From: Candidatus Gottesmanbacteria bacterium UBA6580
GTDB taxonomy: Bacteria > Patescibacteriota > Microgenomatia > UBA10105 > UBA927
Assembly: GCA_002433895.1 (NCBI GenBank)
Contig: DJJA01000006.1
Span: 104,630-168,629 of the forward strand
Length of the DNA stretch: 64,000 nucleotides
Reading direction: 5' to 3'
The notes under the pieces were generated by a model. That model ran no database searches. It worked only from the letters and a program-made list of their open reading frames with translations, and was not told where the DNA came from. Positions within the stretch are counted from its first letter, which is position 1. Each line of letters opens with the position of its first letter. Made by a program: the position numbers and the translations under genes. Below are positions 2,876-52,843 of the stretch, in pieces.

Positions 2876-4228
2876 TCAGTGAACCGCGGGTGGTACTGAA
2901 TCGGCATGTTGCCGCTCGACGGAGTAAAACCGGATACGGTCTCCACGGAAAATAAGGTCTATTTCTGCAAGTGGTCCGTTACGGTGTTTCGCGATGCGGA
3001 GCTTCGTTGCAATCTGCTCGCCCCACATGCTTTGATCGGTTTCTTCACGGTACAAAAACATAACAACGTCAGCATCCTGTTCGATCGAGCCGGACTCCCG
3101 CAAATCTGATAGTTCAGGCACTTTATTGCCCCGCGCTTCGACCGCCCGGGAAAGTTGTGAACACGCAAGTACGGGAATACGGAGCTCGCGCGCGAGATTT
3201 TTCAGATTTTGGGAAATAACTGATACTTCCTGCACCCGGTTATCCAACTTCCGCCCCGGATCACAAAGCTGCAGGTAGTCAACGATAATGAGCTTTACCC
3301 CGTGCTCCACCTGAAGCCTTCGTGCTTTTGTGCGCATTTCGATGATATTCATACCGGGCGTGTCGTCAATAAAAAGCGGCGCTTCGGCAAGCTCACCCAT
3401 CGCGTCGGATAACTTGGTGAAATCATCGTCGGTAAGTTTACCGGTCTTGAGACGCCACGCGTCGATATCTGCCTGACTTACCAATAAACGGTCTACCAAT
3501 TCTTCCTTGCTCATTTCGAGTGAAAAGATACCGGTCGGTATTTTTTCTTTTACCGTGGCGTGCTGCGCCATGTTGAGGATCATCGCTGTTTTGCCGGTTC
3601 CCGGGCGGGCGGCAAGAATAATAAGGTTTGCGTCCTGCATACCGGCGAGTTTCGTATCCAACTCAGTAAAACCGGTGGGTACACCGCGAAGTCCCCCTGC
3701 CCGCTTATGTAACTCATCCAACCGGTCAAACGATGCCGCGAGCGCGTCTTTGATCGGGATAAAATCCCGCCGCGTGGTGGACTGGGCGATCGCGAATATT
3801 TCCATTTCGGCTTCGTTGACGATAGACTGAGAACCTCCTTCGTCCCGAAATGCCATCTCAGTTATTTTTGCCGCGGCCTCGACAAGCTTCCGTTTCGTCG
3901 CGTGCTCGACAATAATCCGCGCGTACTGCTCCGCGTGGGCACTCGTCGGCACGACGTTGACTAAATCAGATAAATATGCGGGTCCGCCGATATCTTTTAT
4001 CGCACCCTTTTGCTTTAGCTGAGCGGCCACCGTCACCACATCAATGGGCTCGTGTAATTCGTATAACTCCATCATGGATTCAAATACCAACGCGTTTGAC
4101 GGGGAATAAAAATGATGCGGACGCAAAAATTCCGCAACGTCAATCATCGTGTCTTTATCGATAAGTATCGCCCCGAGTACCGACTGTTCGGCGACATCAT
4201 CGTGTGGAGGAACTTTAGGACTCGTCAT
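2876..4228 (-). CDS. dnaB: replicative DNA helicase DnaB
   Basis: A 450-aa ORF with Walker A ARPGTGKTA, the DnaB N-terminal SVLGAIL motif and a RecA-like C-domain. It ends with a TGA stop. Confidence 0.95.
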   Translation of the reverse strand: MTSPKVPPHDDVAEQSVLGAILIDKDTMIDVAEFLRPHHFYSPSNALVFESMMELYELHEPIDVVTVAAQLKQKGAIKDIGGPAYLSDLVNVVPTSAHAEQYARIIVEHATKRKLVEAAAKITEMAFRDEGGSQSIVNEAEMEIFAIAQSTTRRDFIPIKDALAASFDRLDELHKRAGGLRGVPTGFTELDTKLAGMQDANLIILAARPGTGKTAMILNMAQHATVKEKIPTGIFSLEMSKEELVDRLLVSQADIDAWRLKTGKLTDDDFTKLSDAMGELAEAPLFIDDTPGMNIIEMRTKARRLQVEHGVKLIIVDYLQLCDPGRKLDNRVQEVSVISQNLKNLARELRIPVLACSQLSRAVEARGNKVPELSDLRESGSIEQDADVVMFLYREETDQSMWGEQIATKLRIAKHRNGPLAEIDLIFRGDRIRFYSVERQHADSVPPAVH

Positions 4229-4866
4229 GATGCTTGTAGTACGACTACTTGCTTTTCGGTAGGTAATTTATCTTTACTCACGGTTAATTTCGGAACCGGC
4301 ACGGCTTCTTCTTTCCCGATGTGCTTTAAGAACACTGAAACCGGAGCCAGGTCCTTGTTATAGGTATCGGTACCGTAATGCATCGGAATAATAATACGCG
4401 GGTCAATATCTGAAATAATTTGTGCTGCTTTTTCCGCGTCAATAGTATATACGCCGCCAACGGGAACAAACAGGACATCCACGCCATCGATCACATCAAC
4501 CTGAGCGGATGAAAGCACATGTCCGATATCACCCAAATGCGCGAACCGTACACCGTCCAGTTCAATGCGGTACATGGTATTACGGCCGCGCTCTTCCCCA
4601 TTTTTTTCATCATGAAATGACGAAACACCAATAACCGAAATACCTTTTATTTCATACTCACCCGGTCCTTGTACGATAAACGGCGAGCCACCAATGAGAT
4701 GTGCCGCATTGTGATCCGGATGTGCATGGGAGATCGTTACGATTTCAGCGTCAATATGCTTGGGGAATTTAATCCCCACCTGTTTTTCATCGTAGGGATC
4801 AGTGACGAGAGTTGCCTGTTTACCACGAAGTTTAAAACTCGCATGACCCAAAGGAAGTATTTCCAT
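4225..4866 (-). CDS. metallo-beta-lactamase-fold metal-dependent hydrolase (UPF0173-like)
   Basis: HAHPDH motif. There is a 4-nt ATGA overlap with dnaB. Confidence 0.7.
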   Translation of the reverse strand: MEILPLGHASFKLRGKQATLVTDPYDEKQVGIKFPKHIDAEIVTISHAHPDHNAAHLIGGSPFIVQGPGEYEIKGISVIGVSSFHDEKNGEERGRNTMYRIELDGVRFAHLGDIGHVLSSAQVDVIDGVDVLFVPVGGVYTIDAEKAAQIISDIDPRIIIPMHYGTDTYNKDLAPVSVFLKHIGKEEAVPVPKLTVSKDKLPTEKQVVVLQAS

Positions 4867-4989
4867 AGTAGTTGCATTTTATATCAGATTTAAGTATCCT
4901 AAGCAACATCCCCCTGCGCTATAAGCCACAGGGATCACTGCCCCAATTCTATTTGCTATTATTTATACGAATGTCATTCCAAACAATTA

Positions 4990-5445
4990 ATGAATAAAGA
5001 CGCAATTCTTGCGACAGTCATAGGGTTTGGTGTCGGGCTCATCATTGCAGCCTTGGTTTTTTTGGGACCAACCCTATTTAAAAACTTTCCGCAAATCCAC
5101 CTCCCTGATATCGGGGCAATGATTTCGAATTTCCAAAACGGCAACAATGCCATTAAACCCGCACCAACACCAAAGCCCGGTGATACACTCACCATCCAAA
5201 GCCCACTTCCTGACGCTATCGAGCCACAAAACGAAGCGCTTATCTCGGGGACCGCTGCGCCAAACGCATTAATCGTTATAGAAGGTGAAGCCACAGAAAA
5301 TGTCGTTGTCGCAAACGCATCCGGGTCCTTCGCCGGGAAAATAGCCCTTGGCGAAGGGAAAAATGAAATTCAGGTAACCAGCCATCTCAAGGACGTGACA
5401 CAGACACAGTCGGTGACGGTATATTACACGCCGGAAGATTTCTAA
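4990..5445 (+). CDS. hypothetical membrane-anchored protein
   Basis: N-terminal TM helix followed by a Pro/Thr linker and a beta-rich domain. No recognisable family. Confidence 0.4.
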   Translation: MNKDAILATVIGFGVGLIIAALVFLGPTLFKNFPQIHLPDIGAMISNFQNGNNAIKPAPTPKPGDTLTIQSPLPDAIEPQNEALISGTAAPNALIVIEGEATENVVVANASGSFAGKIALGEGKNEIQVTSHLKDVTQTQSVTVYYTPEDF

Positions 5446-5453
5446 ATAAACAT

Positions 5454-6248
5454 ATGAAAAAACAATCCTTACTCACCGGTCTTGCCATTCTTACACTCGC
5501 GGTACTTCCGGTAAACCACGTGGCCGCGCAGACAGCAACGCCGAGCGCAACCCCGACCGCCGCAAGCGCCCAGCTAGAAGAATTGAAAGTGCGCTTAGCC
5601 ACTAAAGTTGCGGAACTCAGGTCGGTCGTCAAACGCGCTATGTATGGCACCGTTAAGTCCGTGACGCTGACGTCCGCGACCGTTGAAACAAAAACAAAAG
5701 ACATAAAAATTGAACTTACCGATGACGTAACCATTTCCCAGGTGGTCGGCGGCAAGCGCGTCAACCTTGACGCCGAGGATCTGGCGGCGGACGACCCCAT
5801 CACCGTATTTGGTACCTATGATGAAACGCTTGACCTTCTCAAAGCGCAATATATATTTATTGAGAGCGCCACATCATATACCAGGATCGCCGGTATTGTC
5901 GTGGATGTAGACGATGAAGACTTTGTACTTACCGTCAACACATCTGAAGGAAAAACCATGCTTGTTGATATCGAAAAGACGACCAAAACCTCAGAATGGA
6001 CCCGTGAAAATGGTATTGCTAAAAGCGGATTTTCGAAACTTACCGTCGGAGACACTGTGCATATAACCGGCACCCCGGCAGCAAAAGAAGACAACCGTCT
6101 GTCCGCAGTACGGATACTTAATCTCGGTAACATCACGGGATCTGCTGGTACCCCAACGGCAACCACGGCAGTAACGCCTACGGCGTCTGCCTCTGCCACG
6201 CCCCGAGCGACTCCCCGCCCAACCGCGGTACCCACCGCCACACCATAA
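5454..6248 (+). CDS. secreted hypothetical protein with Thr/Pro-rich C-terminal tail
   Basis: Signal peptide MKKQSLLTGLAILTLAVLPVNHVAAQ. The C-terminus is a low-complexity TPTATP repeat. Confidence 0.5.
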   Translation: MKKQSLLTGLAILTLAVLPVNHVAAQTATPSATPTAASAQLEELKVRLATKVAELRSVVKRAMYGTVKSVTLTSATVETKTKDIKIELTDDVTISQVVGGKRVNLDAEDLAADDPITVFGTYDETLDLLKAQYIFIESATSYTRIAGIVVDVDDEDFVLTVNTSEGKTMLVDIEKTTKTSEWTRENGIAKSGFSKLTVGDTVHITGTPAAKEDNRLSAVRILNLGNITGSAGTPTATTAVTPTASASATPRATPRPTAVPTATP

Positions 6249-6294
6249 AATTGCCACATCATACTTGGGAATTTTTCACGGTATAATAGGTTTC

Positions 6295-7362
6295 ATGCGG
6301 TCTGTTGTGCTTACTGACACCGACGGATTATTTGTTACCAATCCAACCAACGTCCGTTATCTCACGGGCTTTCGCGGGGTCAGTCCCGAAGAACGGGAGG
6401 CATATGCGCTTGTCACCACAGATACAATCTATCTCTTTACCAGTGCGCTTTACCGGGAAACCGCGAAGCAGTTTTCTGGAGTACATCAAAAAGCCATTGA
6501 AATAAGCTACGATCATCCGATAACTGCTGCGTTATCTGAAGTGTGCGACAAGACACGTATCAAAACAGTTGGCTTTGAAGAAACAAATCTGACGGTCTGG
6601 GAGTTTCAAACGCTCAAGCAGTCACTTCCGGGTATCACCCTTACCCCGACACATGGCAGAGTTGAAGCGCTCCGGCAAATGAAAAATACGGAAGAACTAA
6701 AGAGTACGAGACTGGCCGCGTCGTTAACCGACCGGTGTTTTGCCTATATAAAACAACGGCTTAAGCCCGGGATAACGGAAGGTAAACTCGCGTGGGAAAT
6801 TGAAAACTTCTTGAATTTTAAGGCAGGGGGCAACGCATTCTCCCCGATTGTCGCGTTTAATGAACACAGTGCCATGCCCCACTATCATGAACGGGGCAAC
6901 AATCCTCTACGCAAAGGCTCACTTGTCCTATTGGATTTTGGGGCAAAGATAAACGGTTATTGTGCTGATATGACGCGGGTGGTATTTCTGGGGACACCCA
7001 AAGACGCGTGGGTCAGTACGTATACTACCGTGCTGGCGGCCAACGAAAAAGCACTGGCCCTTCTCAAAAACGGTGAGCGTAACGGCGCAACACTCGATGC
7101 CGTCGCACGCGAAGTGATCGCTGGTGCAAACCTTCCGGTCTACCCGCACTCCCTGGGACACGCAGTTGGTCTCGAAATCCACGAGGCTCCCCGCCTCACC
7201 ATAAAGAAAGCAGAAACCCTCAAGCCGGGCATGATTGTCACGGTTGAGCCGGGGGTGTATGTTGAGGGCACATATGGCATCAGAATTGAAGATTTAATAC
7301 ATATTAACGCAAACAGCATAGAACTGCTTTCGAAAAGCACGAAAGAAATCACCATTCTCTGA
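6295..7362 (+). CDS. Xaa-Pro aminopeptidase / M24 family peptidase
   Basis: M24 metal-ligand motifs (HSLGHAVGLEIHE, VEPGVY, IRIEDLI). The ORF track starts at a TTG; the ATG at 6295 is preferred. Confidence 0.8.
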   Translation: MRSVVLTDTDGLFVTNPTNVRYLTGFRGVSPEEREAYALVTTDTIYLFTSALYRETAKQFSGVHQKAIEISYDHPITAALSEVCDKTRIKTVGFEETNLTVWEFQTLKQSLPGITLTPTHGRVEALRQMKNTEELKSTRLAASLTDRCFAYIKQRLKPGITEGKLAWEIENFLNFKAGGNAFSPIVAFNEHSAMPHYHERGNNPLRKGSLVLLDFGAKINGYCADMTRVVFLGTPKDAWVSTYTTVLAANEKALALLKNGERNGATLDAVAREVIAGANLPVYPHSLGHAVGLEIHEAPRLTIKKAETLKPGMIVTVEPGVYVEGTYGIRIEDLIHINANSIELLSKSTKEITIL

Positions 7363-7363
7363 T

Positions 7364-7392
7364 TTGACAACCTCACAGCAGTTATCTATACT
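7364..7392 (+). promoter_or_regulatory. sigma70-like promoter: TTGACA, 17-nt spacer, TATACT
   Basis: TTGACA at 7364-7369 and TATACT at 7387-7392 with exactly 17 nt between them. It lies immediately after the peptidase stop codon. Confidence 0.5.
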
Positions 7393-7402
7393 ACAGGATA
7401 CT

Positions 7403-7471
7403 ATGAATATCGCGCGTGTTACCGTTTGGTACCATACCCACCCACACATCGGGCGGGTTTCCATGCGATAA
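7403..7471 (+). promoter_or_regulatory. candidate 22-aa leader peptide ORF (MNIARVTVWYHTHPHIGRVSMR) with three His codons
   Basis: ATG at 7403 is preceded by AGGA. His codons lie at 7433, 7439 and 7445 inside a CCCACCC segment. The ORF lies between the promoter and the terminator and ends at TAA 7469-7471. Confidence 0.35.
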
Positions 7472-7499
7472 AATACGTACACAACGCAAGGAATTGATA

Positions 7500-7524
7500 C
7501 CCGCCACATGGCGGGTTTATTTAT
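7500..7524 (+). terminator. intrinsic terminator hairpin CCCGCC-ACAU-GGCGGG plus UUUAUUUAU
   Basis: A perfect 6-bp GC stem followed by a U-tract, 13 nt upstream of the hisC-like start codon. Confidence 0.6.
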
Positions 7525-7536
7525 GGAAAAAACACT

Positions 7537-8574
7537 ATGAAATTACCACAAGCATATGCAACAGGAGTCAGAAAACGGGCTATAGACATGACCCTGAGCG
7601 TCAATCCTTTAGGGTGCTCTCCCCGTGCACTCCGCGCTTTACGGTCAATGAACATAAAGAGTATACGCACCTATCCTGACCAAACCTCGTTAAAAACGGC
7701 CGTCGCAAAGACATTTAATGTCAACACTGACAATATTCTCTTGGGGGTAGGATCAGAACAGCTTATTAAGCTGGTGAGTTGCGCGTTTCTTTCACGCGGC
7801 ACTACCGCAGCTATCGAGTCGGGCTCGTTTTTCCTGTTCTCACGGGAACCATTACTCGCGGGAGCGACAAACGTATTTTTTGATTTTAAAAATCCGCCGA
7901 CACTCCGCCGAAAGCCGGATATCCTATTTATCGCCAATCCGACAACGCCGGGAGGTCTTGACCGGACAAATGCCGATATCCTGCGTGTTATCGAGATCAT
8001 CAAACCAAAGATAGCGGTGATTGATGAAGCAAACGGTGAGTTCAGAAGTGATACGCTCATATCCGAACTACCGAAACGCCCAAATCTGGTTGTACTCCGC
8101 ACCTTCTCCAAAGCGCTCGGACTCGCCGGGCTACGGATCGGCATGGCTTTCGGCAGTGCAAAAAACATTGCCGCAATGGGTGAATTTCAGCAGCCATTCC
8201 CCGTCTCATCGGTCGCGCTGATTGCGGCAGAAGCGGCGCTTCGTGATACCGCATTCCTTCAGAGGACAAAACAGTTTATCGTTGCCGAACGTGGGTTTCT
8301 TACGGGCGAGTTGATCAAGCGGGGTTTCCGGGTATCCCCATCGATAACCAATAATCTTTTTGTGTCGAGAGCAGATAATAAACAAATCATCCGTGCGCTT
8401 GCCGCCAAAGATGTGAGTGTCATAGACGGTGCATTTTTTCCGGACAACCAACAGCGTGGATTTCGGATATCGCTCCGTGACAAAAAAACAAACCGGAAAT
8501 TTCTCGCCCGGTTAGATGAAGTACTTGCTTGTCTCGCTCCCAATAAATTGTTACGATCAAAGGAGGCTATATGA
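7537..8574 (+). CDS. class I/II aminotransferase, histidinol-phosphate aminotransferase-like
   Basis: HisC-family PLP lysine context (RTFSKALGLAGLRIGMAFG). Its 3' end overlaps hisS by 4 nt. Confidence 0.7.
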   Translation: MKLPQAYATGVRKRAIDMTLSVNPLGCSPRALRALRSMNIKSIRTYPDQTSLKTAVAKTFNVNTDNILLGVGSEQLIKLVSCAFLSRGTTAAIESGSFFLFSREPLLAGATNVFFDFKNPPTLRRKPDILFIANPTTPGGLDRTNADILRVIEIIKPKIAVIDEANGEFRSDTLISELPKRPNLVVLRTFSKALGLAGLRIGMAFGSAKNIAAMGEFQQPFPVSSVALIAAEAALRDTAFLQRTKQFIVAERGFLTGELIKRGFRVSPSITNNLFVSRADNKQIIRALAAKDVSVIDGAFFPDNQQRGFRISLRDKKTNRKFLARLDEVLACLAPNKLLRSKEAI

Positions 8575-9782
8575 ACACCATCCAACCACTCAAAGGATTC
8601 CGTGATTTTTTGCCTGCAGAGGCCGCCAAACGCAAATGGCTCCGCGACAAACTCGCGGGCATTTTTGAATCCTGGGGGTTTGCGCCGCTCGAGACCCCAA
8701 CGCTAGAGCCACTCGAAATATTTGCGGGAGCCATCGGCGAGGACGAAAAGCTGTTTTTTAAATTCAAAGATCAGGGCGAACGGGATGTCGCGCTCCGCTA
8801 TGATCAGACGGTGCCTACCTGCCGTGTAGTGGCACAATACCAAAACCAACTCGCCTTCCCGTTTAAGCGGTACCAGATACAACCGGCATTCAGAGCCGAG
8901 AAGCCGCAAAAAGGCAGGTACCGGGAGTTTACCCAAGCGGACGCTGACATATTTGGTATAAAAACCCCGGATGCAGATGCCGAAGTCATCGCGCTATCGC
9001 TGGAAATCTACAAACAGCTCGGATTTAAAAAAGCACTCGTCCGCATCAACTCCCGTGCGCTTTTTCAAAACATGCCGTACGAAGCAATCGTTTCCATCGA
9101 TAAAATCAAAAAAATCGGTGATGACGGCGTGCTTTCTGAAATGGAGAAAAAAGGCATCAGCCCGGATAAAGCCCGCGAATATCTGTCGTATGTAAAAAAC
9201 CTCAAACCAAACGAGGAAATTGCATTTATCCTGAAGTACATAAAAAATTATGGATTTCCTGATGACTGGTATGCGTTTGACCCGACAATTGCCCGCTCAT
9301 TCTCCTACTCGATGGGGCCAATTTGGGAAATAGAAATACCCGATGCCGGATACAATATGTCGGTGCTGGGCGGTGAACGATACGACGGATTATTGGAAAA
9401 ATTTGCCGGCCGCGATATCGGCGGCACCGGGTTTGCGGTGGGTTTTGACCGCACACTCGAAGCTGCGGAAATCATGGGGCTCATCCCCGCGTTATCCGTA
9501 GCGGGACAAGTGCTCGTCACCATATTTTCCAAAGATGTATTACCCAACGCCCAGCAAATCGCGCAAACGCTGCGGATAAACGGTGTTGCCGCGGACTTAT
9601 ACCCTAACGCGGATAAACTGGAAAAACAGTTAAAGTACGCCGATAAAAACGCTATCCCCTACGTCGTTATCCAGGGGCCCGATGAAGCAACCCGCGGTAT
9701 GGTAAAACTCAAAAACATGAAAACCAAGGATCAAAAAGAAGTATCGCTTGCCGAGCTTCCAAAATTGTTCATAAACGATTGA
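8571..9782 (+). CDS. hisS: histidyl-tRNA synthetase
   Basis: Class II aaRS motifs (GFRDFLP, RYDQTVP, FRAEKPQKGRYREFTQ) and a C-terminal HisRS anticodon-binding domain. Confidence 0.85.
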   Translation: MNTIQPLKGFRDFLPAEAAKRKWLRDKLAGIFESWGFAPLETPTLEPLEIFAGAIGEDEKLFFKFKDQGERDVALRYDQTVPTCRVVAQYQNQLAFPFKRYQIQPAFRAEKPQKGRYREFTQADADIFGIKTPDADAEVIALSLEIYKQLGFKKALVRINSRALFQNMPYEAIVSIDKIKKIGDDGVLSEMEKKGISPDKAREYLSYVKNLKPNEEIAFILKYIKNYGFPDDWYAFDPTIARSFSYSMGPIWEIEIPDAGYNMSVLGGERYDGLLEKFAGRDIGGTGFAVGFDRTLEAAEIMGLIPALSVAGQVLVTIFSKDVLPNAQQIAQTLRINGVAADLYPNADKLEKQLKYADKNAIPYVVIQGPDEATRGMVKLKNMKTKDQKEVSLAELPKLFIND

Positions 9783-9797
9783 AGAAATTATACTGCC

Positions 9798-10715
9798 ATG
9801 AGTCGTAGAACCACTGCCGCGCTCTATCTCCTCCTCGTCTCGGTTATCTGGGGTGCAGCGAGTCCGGTCGTAAAAAACACCCTCCAATGGTTTGACCCAT
9901 GGCTGTTTCTCACCTACCGTTTTTTTGTAAGCGCGCTTATCGCATTTCCGTATCTTTCACTGACCGGGGTACAAATGCCCAAAAAACCAGCACACCTTTG
10001 GCTTGTGATGATGACTGGCTTCGTATCGGCACCACTGTCGCTTTTTCTCTTTTTCGAGGCGCTGGATAAAACCACGGCACTCTCAGGAAGCCTTATTACT
10101 GCCGCGGGGCCCCTCTTTCTTATTCTTGGCGGCGTATTGTTTTTCCGTGACCGTATCACACGCAACGAAAAAATCGGCATAGGCATCGCTCTCGCCGGCA
10201 CCATTCTTACGGTCATCGGGCCGCTTATCCTCAATGGCCATTCGAACACCCTGGGCAAACTTGAGGGAAATGGCCTCATGCTGCTTGCGGTCATCACCGA
10301 TATCATCGGCGCGCTTATGAGCAAAGAGGCGATGAAAAAGGGTATTCATGCCACGCTTGTTGCCCAAACCCAATTTATTCTGGGATTTGTGATCTTTTTA
10401 CCCGTCCTGTTCCTCCGTCAGCCGCCGGAAGTTGCATGGGCAGCGCTTGTTTCTGCCCCACTGCAGGCTCACGCCGGAGTACTTTATATGGCTGTGCTTT
10501 CCGGTACCGTCGCCTATACCATACGCAATATTGCCGTGAAAACAATAGAGGTTTCCGAATCCGCACTGTACCAATATCTACAGCCTTTGTGGGCGGCTAT
10601 TCTGGCTGTTTTGTGGTTAAAAGAAGCGATAACCCCATCCTATATCCTGGGTGGCGTGATTATCGCCGTCGGCGTCTTCATCGCAGAAAAGAAACAGAGA
10701 AAAAAATTAAAATAG
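9798..10715 (+). CDS. EamA/DMT-family transporter
   Basis: About ten TM helices in two EamA-like halves. Confidence 0.7.
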   Translation: MSRRTTAALYLLLVSVIWGAASPVVKNTLQWFDPWLFLTYRFFVSALIAFPYLSLTGVQMPKKPAHLWLVMMTGFVSAPLSLFLFFEALDKTTALSGSLITAAGPLFLILGGVLFFRDRITRNEKIGIGIALAGTILTVIGPLILNGHSNTLGKLEGNGLMLLAVITDIIGALMSKEAMKKGIHATLVAQTQFILGFVIFLPVLFLRQPPEVAWAALVSAPLQAHAGVLYMAVLSGTVAYTIRNIAVKTIEVSESALYQYLQPLWAAILAVLWLKEAITPSYILGGVIIAVGVFIAEKKQRKKLK

Positions 10716-10717
10716 CG

Positions 10718-11056
10718 TTATTTCTCAACGAAAATACTCACCCACGCCAAACTTTTCCGCGTTTTCCGTGCGGAGATCTCAAACCACCCATGTTGTGTAT
10801 CAACATTTGACTTGACTCCTCCCCCACTTGGAACAGCGACATCTACACTCACTTCCCTGCCTTCAACGTATGCCCGGGTATGTAAAGAAAATGATGTTCT
10901 CCGCTTTCTCGGCACATTCGCATGCAAAAAGCCGTCCTCGTCTAGCGTTATTTCCCCCAATGTCGGATGACGGAATACGGTGCCTGGAGCGTACTCCCTC
11001 TCAATAGAGCGTAACCGCGCAGAGCGATAAGGCTTGTGAACAACAGTGAGACGCAT
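10718..11056 (-). CDS. hypothetical protein
   Basis: A 112-aa ORF with no recognisable motif. Confidence 0.35.
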   Translation of the reverse strand: MRLTVVHKPYRSARLRSIEREYAPGTVFRHPTLGEITLDEDGFLHANVPRKRRTSFSLHTRAYVEGREVSVDVAVPSGGGVKSNVDTQHGWFEISARKTRKSLAWVSIFVEK

Positions 11057-50768: not shown

Positions 50769-52217
50769 TTAGTATGACTGCCCGAACAGCCACCGGTGTA
50801 CGGCTGGCTTCCCACAGTGCACACACACTCCTTCTTCTTCAGGAGCAGTCAACGGCAGACAACGGGTGGCAGCCTTCGTCTTTTCCTTAATCGCAGCTTC
50901 ACACGGTGCTTCTTCGCACCAGAACGCCCGGATAAATCCACGGTTCGTTTTCATAATGTCCTCAAAATCAGAAAATTCAACGACATCACGCGTGTTGCTT
51001 TCCAGAAAATTCTTTGCCGTGGCGTAGAGCGATTTTTGGATATCCTCGAGCATTTTTTCAATTTTCGGGATCATTTCCCGCCGCTCTACGACAATCTTTT
51101 CGCCTGTATCGCGGCGCGCCATGGTCACCGTCCTATCAGTCATCTCTTTCATACCCACTTCCAGCCGCACGGGTACGCCTTTTACTTCCCATTCGTTAAA
51201 CTTGCGGCCGACTGACTGGCTATCCCGGTCGTCAAGCCGTGTGCGCACGCCCTGACCGACCAAGGCATCACGTATCTCGCCGCAATAATCCAGAAGTGCC
51301 TCACGCCCTTCATCGCCGCGCGAAATAGGCACTACCACGACCTGCGTAGACGCGATTTTCGGTGGCAGTACTAACCCGTTATCATCACCATGGGTGAGGA
51401 ACAACCCTCCCAGACTCCGGGTAGAAAACCCAAATGAGGTCTGCCAGACAAACTCGGAGGCTCCTTCGCGGGTCTGGAAAGAAATATTAAAAGATTTCGA
51501 GAAATTTTGCCCCAAGTTATGACTTGTCCCTCCTTGGAGTGCTTTGCCGTCCGGCATAAGTGCTTCTACCGTAAACGTGGTTTTGGCTCCGGCAAATTTC
51601 TCTGTTTCGCTTTTCCGTCCCATTATGACGGGTACGGCGAAATAATCCTCGTAAATCTGGCGGTACCAATCAAGCGCTTTCATCACCGTCGCCACGGCTT
51701 CTTTTTCGGTTTCATGGGCGGTGTGCCCCTCCTGCCATAAAAACTCAGTTGTCCGCAAGAAAAGATAGGTACGTTTTTCCCACCTGACTACGTTATTCCA
51801 CTGATTGATCAGGACCGGCAGATCGCGCCAACTATGTACCCATTTGGAATACATATCGTACATAATTGTCTCGGACGTCGGGCGGACAACCAGCGGATCT
51901 TTGAGTTTCTCGCCCCCTCCCACTGTTACCACCGCAAGCTCAGGGGAAAATCCTTCTACATGCTGCTTTTCTTTCTCGAGGAGCGACATGGGGATAAACA
52001 ACGGAAAATACGCGTTTTCGATACCCGCTGAACGCATCATACGGTTCAATGCCTCCTGTACCGATTCCCACAACGCATAACCATATGGTCGGATAACCAT
52101 ACAGCCTTTTACCGGGGCATAATCGGCTATCCCCGCTTTCAGTATGACGTCGGTATACCACGCAGATAAATCATCGCTTTTTTTCTTCAGTTCCTTTTTT
52201 TCGAATGCTGGTTTCAT
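50769..52217 (-). CDS. proS: prolyl-tRNA synthetase (archaeal/eukaryotic-type class IIa)
   Basis: Class II motifs 1-3, a C-terminal zinc-binding domain, and no editing insertion. Confidence 0.9.
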   Translation of the reverse strand: MKPAFEKKELKKKSDDLSAWYTDVILKAGIADYAPVKGCMVIRPYGYALWESVQEALNRMMRSAGIENAYFPLFIPMSLLEKEKQHVEGFSPELAVVTVGGGEKLKDPLVVRPTSETIMYDMYSKWVHSWRDLPVLINQWNNVVRWEKRTYLFLRTTEFLWQEGHTAHETEKEAVATVMKALDWYRQIYEDYFAVPVIMGRKSETEKFAGAKTTFTVEALMPDGKALQGGTSHNLGQNFSKSFNISFQTREGASEFVWQTSFGFSTRSLGGLFLTHGDDNGLVLPPKIASTQVVVVPISRGDEGREALLDYCGEIRDALVGQGVRTRLDDRDSQSVGRKFNEWEVKGVPVRLEVGMKEMTDRTVTMARRDTGEKIVVERREMIPKIEKMLEDIQKSLYATAKNFLESNTRDVVEFSDFEDIMKTNRGFIRAFWCEEAPCEAAIKEKTKAATRCLPLTAPEEEGVCVHCGKPAVHRWLFGQSY

Positions 52218-52293: not shown

Positions 52294-52629
52294 TTAATAT
52301 AATCTTCCTCCGACTATTGCATCATCTTTGTCCGGAACTATCAAGACGCACTCATGATTTTCATCTGGGACTCCAAGCGTAAGCACCTCAGACACAAACG
52401 GACCGATTTGACGGGGTGGGAAGTTTACGACCCCCAGCACTTTCTTTCCGATCAGCGCCTCTTTCGTATAGTATGTTACAAGCTGCGCGCTCGACCGTTT
52501 TTTACCTATTTCGCTACCGAAATCTATAGTGAGTTTATAGGCGGGTTTTCTCGCCTCGGGAAAATCGTCGACCGCCACAATAACACCAACCCGTATATCC
52601 AACGCCGCGAAATTGTCATACATAGCCAT
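52294..52629 (-). CDS. csaA: tRNA-binding protein CsaA (EMAP/Trbp111-like OB fold)
   Basis: 111 aa with the IRVGVIVAV...KKRSSAQLV pattern. Confidence 0.85.
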   Translation of the reverse strand: MAMYDNFAALDIRVGVIVAVDDFPEARKPAYKLTIDFGSEIGKKRSSAQLVTYYTKEALIGKKVLGVVNFPPRQIGPFVSEVLTLGVPDENHECVLIVPDKDDAIVGGRLY

Positions 52630-52843
52630 AATAAAACCCTCTCCTTACACAAATCAGGCAGTATTCCTGAAATGTAAGGGCGAGGGTAAATCCCGCGGTA
52701 CCACCTTACTTTTCGCCTCCGCCAAACGGCGGATTGCGAATCTTCATTTAAGCAGTCACGGGCTTTCCCGTCTCCGTTATTGGCGGAGCCACCTCTTATT
52801 CCGGTCGGATCTCGGAACGAACGTGTTTCACGTACAATCGATT
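52630..52843 (-). promoter_or_regulatory. T-box riboswitch leader (translational, RBS-sequestering type) upstream of csaA-proS
   Basis: The minus-strand RNA contains AAGUAAGGUGGUACCGCGGG, matching the T-box consensus AAUUAGGGUGGUACCGCGG at 16 of 18 positions including the invariant UGGUACCGCG. An antiterminator-type fold (GUAAGG/CCUUAC stem, 7-nt UGGUACC bulge, GCGGG/CUCGC stem) competes with a sequestrator helix ACCCUC...CCUUACA/UGUAAGG...GAGGGU that occludes the AAGGAGAGGG Shine-Dalgarno sequence. Confidence 0.75.

Follow-up and report, generated by a model that had tools for sequence, protein, structure and literature searches.

Transcription attenuation through a translated leader peptide is a textbook mechanism, and histidine leaders have several independent origins (PMC2965389, PMC9413887). 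The attenuator mechanism of the enterobacterial his operon has been summarised (PMC9413887), and predicted His leader peptides precede a hisS paralogue and hisZ in the Bacillus cereus group (PMC2965389) and, in three Firmicutes lineages, his operons (PMC9413887). In mycobacteria, attenuators with leaderless polycysteine short open reading frames (ORFs) have been described (bioRxiv 10.1101/834739). For the candidate phyla radiation (CPR), or Patescibacteria, full-text literature searches for attenuators found none. The usual picture of these bacteria is one of minimal biosynthetic capacity and sparse regulation. Here, we describe a short leader at positions 7364-7524 of a 64,000-nucleotide stretch of contig DJJA01000006.1 from the uncultured Candidatus Gottesmanbacteria bacterium UBA6580 (the whole 64-kb stretch is called the window below), lying upstream of a gene for a HisC-like aminotransferase, the histidyl-tRNA synthetase gene hisS, and a gene for an EamA-family transporter. 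Taken together, its sequence and its relatives make it probable that this leader is a ribosome-mediated transcription attenuator of the hisC-like/hisS/EamA operon and, as we infer from the same evidence, one that responds to histidine.

An initial annotation of the window had already read the leader as a His attenuator, and this reading is strengthened by the recurrence of the same arrangement at 23 further loci. Relatives of the aminotransferase were drawn from two Candidatus Woesebacteria metagenome-assembled genomes (MAGs), two MAGs labelled Gammaproteobacteria, and 27 metagenome contigs, and the leader set used throughout comprises the window and 23 other distinct loci (given L numbers here) where the leader stands in front of the orthologous aminotransferase. 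These relatives place the window in a CPR bacterium (Microgenomates or Woesebacteria-like). The 24 leader sequences were used to build a covariance model, with which they score 63-127 bits; in the window, this model detects a single copy and no second one. At L028, which carries the most distant aminotransferase homologue (31% identity), there is no leader. The window's exact aminotransferase was found on two short Logan contigs only. All 24 leaders combine the hairpins with a short ORF and His codons, and none has the hairpins alone. The ORF is 14-25 codons long and begins at the same position in every case, with a His at codon 10-12 for which both CAT and CAC are in use. Overall, 44 of the 544 leader codons (8.1%) encode His, compared with 1.0% in neighbouring proteins (binomial P = 1.6e-25), and so do 3 of the 22 codons in the window's own ORF (codons 11, 13, and 15, starting at 7433, 7439, and 7445).

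The ORF and the RNA beneath it are maintained in different ways. Segment 2, the RNA segment that can pair either with segment 1 upstream or with the terminator downstream, is translated as Gly-Arg-Val in the window's clade and as Gly-Gly-Phe in L006 and others, and a one-base compensating T indel holds the stop codon in position despite this change of frame. Since the segment is read in two frames and the stop is nevertheless kept, it is conserved as RNA and the open frame is kept independently, which is the signature expected of a translated regulatory leader.

The elements named in the initial annotation were recovered at the coordinates given there, and they are collected with their energies in Table 1. 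The near-consensus promoter noted after the peptidase stop codon, TTGACA-17-TATACT, matches the sigma-70 consensus at 11 of 12 positions; among the three promoter-like sites in 6200-10900 (shuffles: mean 5.6), it scores best and alone is near-consensus. The 22-codon ORF with its three His codons, as well as the segments CCCACCC (7437-7443), GGGCGGG (7451-7457), and CCCGCC (7500-7505), are present as noted, and computed energies now accompany the proposed 1:2, 2:3, and 3:4 alternative pairings, the 2:3 value including a middle hairpin. This middle hairpin, which surrounds the stop codon and stacks under the antiterminator, had been overlooked in the original set of alternative hairpins. Over 7433-7524, the terminator (OFF) state comes to -32.7 kcal/mol and the best antiterminator (ON) state to -30.6 kcal/mol, and near-equal energies of this kind are what a switch needs. 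The whole-leader fold has a z of -2.75 against dinucleotide shuffles, the terminator is the strongest terminator-like site in 6200-10900, and the regulatory His codons overlap or abut segment 1.

Table 1. Features of the leader and its flanking genes in the window (positions count from the first nucleotide of the window)
Feature	Position	Strand	Details
M24 peptidase gene	6265-7362	+	stop codon directly 5' of TTGACA
-35 hexamer TTGACA	7364-7369	+	17-nt spacer to -10
-10 hexamer TATACT	7387-7392	+	predicted transcription start ~7398-7400
Leader ORF, 22 codons + TAA	ATG 7403 to TAA 7469-7471	+	MNIARVTVWYHTHPHIGRVSMR
His codons 11 (CAT) and 13 (CAC)	7433-7441	+	proposed stall site
Third His codon	7445-7447	+	codon 15, non-conserved
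Segment 1	7436-7443	+	ACCCACCC; 5' arm of 1:2 anti-antiterminator hairpin
Segment 2	7451-7458	+	GGGCGGGU; partner of segment 1 or segment 3
1:2 hairpin	7436-7443 with 7451-7458		ACCC-A-CCC with GGG-C-GGGU; -11.3 kcal/mol
Middle hairpin	7459-7493		UUCC.UGCG / CGCA.GGAA, UAA 7469-7471 in loop; -7.6 kcal/mol
2:3 antiterminator stacked on middle hairpin	G7452-U7458 with A7499-C7505		7 Watson-Crick pairs; -21.6 kcal/mol
Terminator stem (3:4)	7499-7516		A7499-C7505 / G7510-U7516; -13.8 kcal/mol
Intrinsic terminator	7499-7524	+	segment 3 ACCCGCC, loop ACAU, segment 4 GGCGGGU, tail UUAUUUAU
HisC-like class I/II aminotransferase, first regulated gene	7537-8574	+	PF00155 (Aminotran_1_2)
hisS, histidyl-tRNA synthetase	8571-9782	+	TIGR00442, 347.7 bits (above the 286.75 cutoff)
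EamA-family transporter, probably third operon gene	9798-10715	+	PF00892

The alternative pairings are kept well beyond the window. When the whole upstream region of each leader was searched, the best partner of the terminator 5' arm and loop was located past the last His codon in 24 of 24 cases; it precedes the stop codon in the 22 full-length ORFs and runs past it in L002 and L015, whose ORFs stop early, 3-4 codons past the His. Against dinucleotide shuffles, this partner has a mean z of -4.2 over the 24 leaders and of -2.8 in the window. Because the window's clade and three divergent loci were out of register in the MAFFT alignment, per-sequence duplex energies and a swap test were used instead. 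The swap test bears on the loci with divergent terminator stems (CCAGCC in L002 and L015, CCTCC in L025), and in all three, when the upstream regions of all 24 loci are offered to the terminator arm, the best partner is segment 2 from the same locus, with a value of -19.8 in L025 against a mean of -8.3. The 1:2 hairpin is retained in L005, L006, L007, and L001, its helix showing one double compensatory change (L006, CCC/GGG to CCUU/AAGG) and two wobble changes, and an equivalent of the middle hairpin is part of the predicted antiterminator in all nine leaders that were folded in detail. With RNAalifold on the MAFFT alignment, the terminator was the only helix recovered, with compensatory changes in 3 of its 7 pairs, and for the 2:3 helix 81.8% of the alignment cells pair, compared with 29-53% in slid registers.

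To place a ribosome on the leader, the leader was masked as far as 12 nt beyond the first His codon and cut off before segment 4, the footprint of the ribosome being assumed. In this simulated first-His stall, an automatic count gives 22 of 24 leaders with the terminator arm taken up by the antiterminator, which on inspection forms too in L002 and L015, the two that the count had missed. With the ribosome at the stop codon, the terminator arm is free in 18 of the 24. The initial annotation had treated all three His codons of the window as regulatory. Of these, masking supports disruption of the 1:2 hairpin for codons 11 and 13 and does not support it for codon 15, which in the closest relatives is replaced by Arg (L005) or Glu (L006); since codon 15 is not conserved and a ribosome stalled there would hide segment 2, the simulation leaves codons 11 and 13 as the relevant ones.

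Translation of the leader would begin at or very near the 5' end of the transcript. In all 24 leaders without exception, a gap of 4-12 nt (mostly 8-10) separates the -10 box from the ATG of the ORF downstream, and the box is accompanied by TTGACA at 17-18 nt or by an extended TGn motif, many relatives having TGnTATAAT; TTGACA with the 17-18 nt spacing is kept in the window's clade (L001, L005, L006, and L007). Transcription usually begins ~7 nt past the -10 hexamer. The conserved spacing from -10 box to ATG would thus give a 5' untranslated region of ~0-5 nt at all loci, and the leader ORF is probably leaderless or nearly so. The AGGA at 7395-7398 (4 nt before the leader ATG and 2 nt past the -10 box), which had been taken for a ribosome-binding site, is unlikely to be one, being too near both the -10 box and the ATG and confined to the window's clade.

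From these elements, the following sequence of events can be proposed. Transcription would start a few bases 5' of the leader AUG, and the 22-codon ORF would be translated in a leaderless or near-leaderless manner. When charged tRNA-His is scarce, the ribosome would stall with His codon 11 or 13 in its A site, covering segment 1 and leaving segment 2 free; segment 2, aided by the adjacent middle hairpin, would then pair with the 5' arm of the terminator once that arm is made, and with the antiterminator formed, the terminator would not arise and RNA polymerase would read into the operon. With ample His-tRNA, the ribosome would reach the UAA, melt the middle hairpin, and cover the 3' part of segment 2, so that segments 3 and 4 would form the terminator. 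In the event of no translation, the 1:2 hairpin would form first and transcription would terminate.

Several observations weigh against this proposal. The window has just two conserved His codons and several relatives have one, and, compared with the seven His in a row of the enterobacterial leader hisL, the one to three found here are scattered. A stall at the third His codon of the window (7445) would cover segment 2 itself, the U-tract of the window's terminator is interrupted (UUUAUUUAU), and leaderless translation in this lineage is an assumption. Alignment covariation for the 2:3 helix was weak and non-significant and did not exceed shuffle controls, which is attributable to the high conservation of the segments. 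Finally, RNA truncated before segment 4 prefers the 2:3 pairing even without a ribosome, and the terminator is present in the full-length minimum-energy folds of 12 of the 24 leaders only. Given these two folding results, the choice between terminator and antiterminator must be kinetic, as in classical attenuators.

The genes behind the leader and its repeated occurrence beside histidine genes bear directly on what it would control. In the window, the distance from the terminator tail to the aminotransferase ATG is 12 nt, one less than first noted, and leaves no space for a promoter, so the operon including hisS must be transcribed through the terminator. The identities assigned earlier to the aminotransferase and hisS genes, as well as the 4 nt shared by their reading frames, held up; the best NCBIfam match of the aminotransferase is TIGR01141 hisC at 193.8 bits, under the cutoff of 276.55, and hisS is above its own. 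The order aminotransferase-hisS-EamA is kept in L002, L003, and L023, and L001 has the same ORF order, its third ORF being EamA by order and not by profile. A tblastn search of the 64-kb window with L006 and L023 proteins found no homologues of hisG or hisD, and the sole tRNA in the window is a tRNA-Leu(CAA) at 2686-2773.

Among the relatives, the leader is found together with further histidine genes. L023 has a second, diverged leader at 1311-1433 (29.6 bits, E = 4e-4 with the covariance model), with an ORF, MTANIDSFNHHDSLGWRV, that contains His-His codons, a GGUUGGCGGG segment, and a terminator, CCCCGCCA..GGCGTGG, and it stands directly upstream of a HisG homologue at 1444-2154; with two leader copies, one genome uses the device twice. 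In L006, whose aminotransferase is 65% identical to that of the window, the leader-hisC unit is followed by tRNA-His (4393-4467), hisG (4478-5320), and hisD (5286-6626), and in L024 a tRNA-His and a hisG fragment lie nearby. As hisG, hisD, and tRNA-His are neighbours of the leader and the upstream genes vary, the leader travels with histidine genes, and its association with hisC, hisS, hisG, hisD, and tRNA-His is directly observed across these loci.

Other observations on the relatives are the following. Outside the window's clade (L022, L029, L009, L011, L012, L016, L018, and others), the 5' end of the ORF, AUGAAAACCCnnAUGACCAAC, is complementary to the entire segment 2; it lies within the first 20 nt of the ORF and encodes a conserved Met-Lys-Thr-Gln-Met-Thr start. 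Its predicted pairing with segment 2 offers a second anti-antiterminator involving the start codon, which the window does not have. The two loci from MAG contigs labelled uncultured Gammaproteobacteria are L003 (CAYLWN010000002.1) and L004 (CAYHKY010000009.1). L003 has the leader, the aminotransferase-hisS-EamA order, and 42% protein identity in common with the Woesebacteria loci, and in L004, where the contig ends inside the aminotransferase gene, what can be compared is the leader and 48% identity only. The Gammaproteobacteria label of these loci may be a misassignment, or it may reflect transfer.

The His codons of the leaders have characteristic neighbours. Over the 24 leaders, Trp codons (3.5% vs 0.9%) and Tyr codons (6.4% vs 2.6%) are enriched beside the His codons, e.g., in Trp-His-His-Tyr and Trp-Tyr-His-Thr-His, and in the window at 7427-7432. 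This enrichment could be a hint of aromatic-amino-acid input for a HisC-family aminotransferase, or it could come from a constraint at the RNA level. The chance that the leader is more than a plain His attenuator is small: (i) it could be a minimal leaderless device in which one or two His codons suffice, as Trp/Tyr codons or a nascent Trp/Tyr-His-x-Pro peptide strengthen the stall; (ii) the flanking Trp/Tyr codons could integrate the supply of His and of aromatic amino acids for an aminotransferase of broad specificity; and (iii) in many relatives, the leader would be coupled as well to a second conserved RNA, a tandem G-A hairpin located before hisC and again before tRNA-His. If such a wider reading is true, CPR bacteria would, with their reduced T-boxes included, have a histidine regulon built of several layers of RNA control.

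The second RNA is seen in about 12 relatives as an extra conserved stretch of 60-150 nt between the attenuator terminator and the hisC ATG (L006 2888-3000 and 4287-4392; L009 974-1072; also L012, L020, L022, L023, L024, L017, L011, and L003). It consists of a long hairpin with a covarying stem (e.g., GGUUAGUUAGC...GCUUACUAACC) around a tandem GA/GA, after which most have a second hairpin, AAUCCGCC...GGCGGAUU; in L006, this second hairpin differs and the RNA occurs again upstream of tRNA-His. The hairpin has no Rfam match at gathering score, and a search for it in the window found it absent.

Among the explanations that dispense with a ribosome-mediated His attenuator, the first would be a translation-independent RNA switch, in which a ligand, a protein, or uncharged tRNA-His sets the hairpins and the ORF is incidental. 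The segments are indeed conserved as nucleotides, and segments 1 and 2 explain much of the peptide conservation (Pro-Thr-Arg, Val-Gly-Gly-Phe); these organisms also use reduced T-box-like leaders. However, all 24 leaders maintain the place where the ORF begins, its length, and the place where it stops, even across the frame shift and its compensating indel, the His at codon 10-12 is written with both synonymous codons, and there is no obvious ligand pocket besides simple hairpins. Known RNA families offer no better identity. At gathering score, Rfam matches only the tRNA-Leu in the window, and His_leader (RF00514) is unmatched there and in 16 loci; even at E<=10, neither RF00514 nor the T-box (RF00230) is among the matches to 7300-7600, and the leader family is outside every Rfam model. 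We consider such a switch very improbable.

The T-box in particular, which the initial annotation had judged unlikely in its canonical form, was rejected as the identity of 7364-7524. This stretch has neither Stem I, nor a specifier loop, nor the T-box sequence (GGUGGNACCGCG), and the RF00230 search that leaves it unmatched does recover T-box-like elements elsewhere in the window and in L006. The UGGUACC heptamer within the leader corresponds to the codons TGG-TAC-CAT (Trp-Tyr-His), and it occurs only in leaders that encode Trp-Tyr-His and is missing from most relatives. The element in the window, at 52673-52830 on the minus strand, is a sub-threshold T-box-like leader (RF00230 37.2 bits vs a gathering score of 93, E=1e-4) with the canonical GGUGGUACCGCG, a Stem I that is greatly shortened, and a hairpin with an AAGGAG ribosome-binding site within it. 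It is located upstream of genes for a tRNA-binding-domain protein (52294-52629) and the prolyl-tRNA synthetase proS (50769-52217), and its UGGU suits a tRNA with discriminator base A73. The L006 element (4061-4251; 41.3 bits, E=2.6e-7) lies directly after the leader-controlled hisC and before tRNA-His, has only 8 nt where the model's Stem I region has a stretch of 75 nt, and carries a UGGGACCGCG that is predicted to pair with the C73 discriminator of tRNA-His.

The leader could also be a small-protein or small RNA (sRNA) gene with a leaky terminator, hisC and hisS being expressed by constitutive read-through and histidine not being sensed at all. The weak tail of the window's terminator and the small number of His codons would suit such a gene, as would a sub-threshold likeness to terminator-bearing sRNAs (anti-hemB, 22.5 bits). 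At E<=10, the 7300-7600 region gives nothing but weak, terminator-driven matches, to anti-hemB and to Trp_leader (21.4 bits). Membership in either family was not accepted, as both matches are far under their cutoffs. A leaky-terminator gene would leave unexplained why segment 2 matches the terminator arm at every locus and changes with it where the terminator sequence differs, why an invariant His codon stands just 5' of segment 1, and why the leader is associated with hisC (in L023 also with hisG) amid differing upstream neighbours, and we regard it as very improbable. Least credible is a nascent-peptide sensor of the TnaC or arrest-peptide type, in which Trp/Tyr-His-x-His/Tyr-Pro would act in the ribosome tunnel and possibly free histidine or aromatic amino acids, not tRNA-His charging alone, would be sensed: although Trp and Tyr are enriched next to the His codons and Pro often follows them, the Pro codon coincides with segment 1 (CCAAC) and gives way to Ala (GCAAC) where pairing is kept, the C-terminal part is in two frames across clades, peptide lengths and N-termini are variable, and the L002 and L015 peptides end almost directly after the His.

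With the leader read as a ribosome-mediated His attenuator, the advance lies in taxonomy and comparison and not in the concept of the mechanism. Contrary to the usual picture of CPR bacteria, histidine genes are retained in a Woesebacteria-like lineage (hisC-like and hisS in the window; hisG, hisD, and tRNA-His in relatives), and classical translation-coupled attenuation of these genes would imply tight coupling of transcription and translation in these organisms, with a mechanism that probably depends on leaderless initiation. Since the leader family has no Rfam match and is represented by 24 distinct loci, it could join RNA annotation resources.

Of the described systems, enterobacterial hisL (RF00514) is similar in its short His-codon leader ORF, its mutually exclusive hairpins, and its control of histidine genes by ribosome stalling. 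In contrast to hisL, the leader described here is probably leaderless, has a middle hairpin around its stop codon, and belongs to a CPR host, and it would control a hisC-like gene, hisS, and a transporter gene, whereas hisL controls the whole his operon. In the pheM-pheST system of Escherichia coli, an aminoacyl-tRNA synthetase gene is controlled through a leader peptide in which the amino acid of that synthetase is abundant. The present leader likewise places a synthetase gene under a leader peptide with codons for the cognate amino acid; however, the amino acid is another one, and the synthetase gene comes second, behind an aminotransferase gene of the biosynthetic type. The T-box (RF00230) of hisS and his genes in Firmicutes and Actinobacteria similarly converts the charging of tRNA-His into a choice between terminator and antiterminator, but in the leader described here, sensing is proposed to proceed via translation of His codons. 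The His leaders of Firmicutes (B. cereus group, Peptostreptococcaceae, and Erysipelotrichales) are, like this one, lineage-specific devices of independent origin that were predicted from genome comparisons; their His codons come in unbroken runs of three to five (PMC9413887), and no kinship is apparent with the leader of the Woesebacteria-like lineage. Finally, the mycobacterial polycysteine ORFs share with the leader a regulatory short ORF at or near the 5' end of the transcript and, on the reading proposed here, the control of an operon by the cognate amino acid. That system senses cysteine and belongs to Actinobacteria, whereas here an intrinsic terminator and an explicit antiterminator are predicted.

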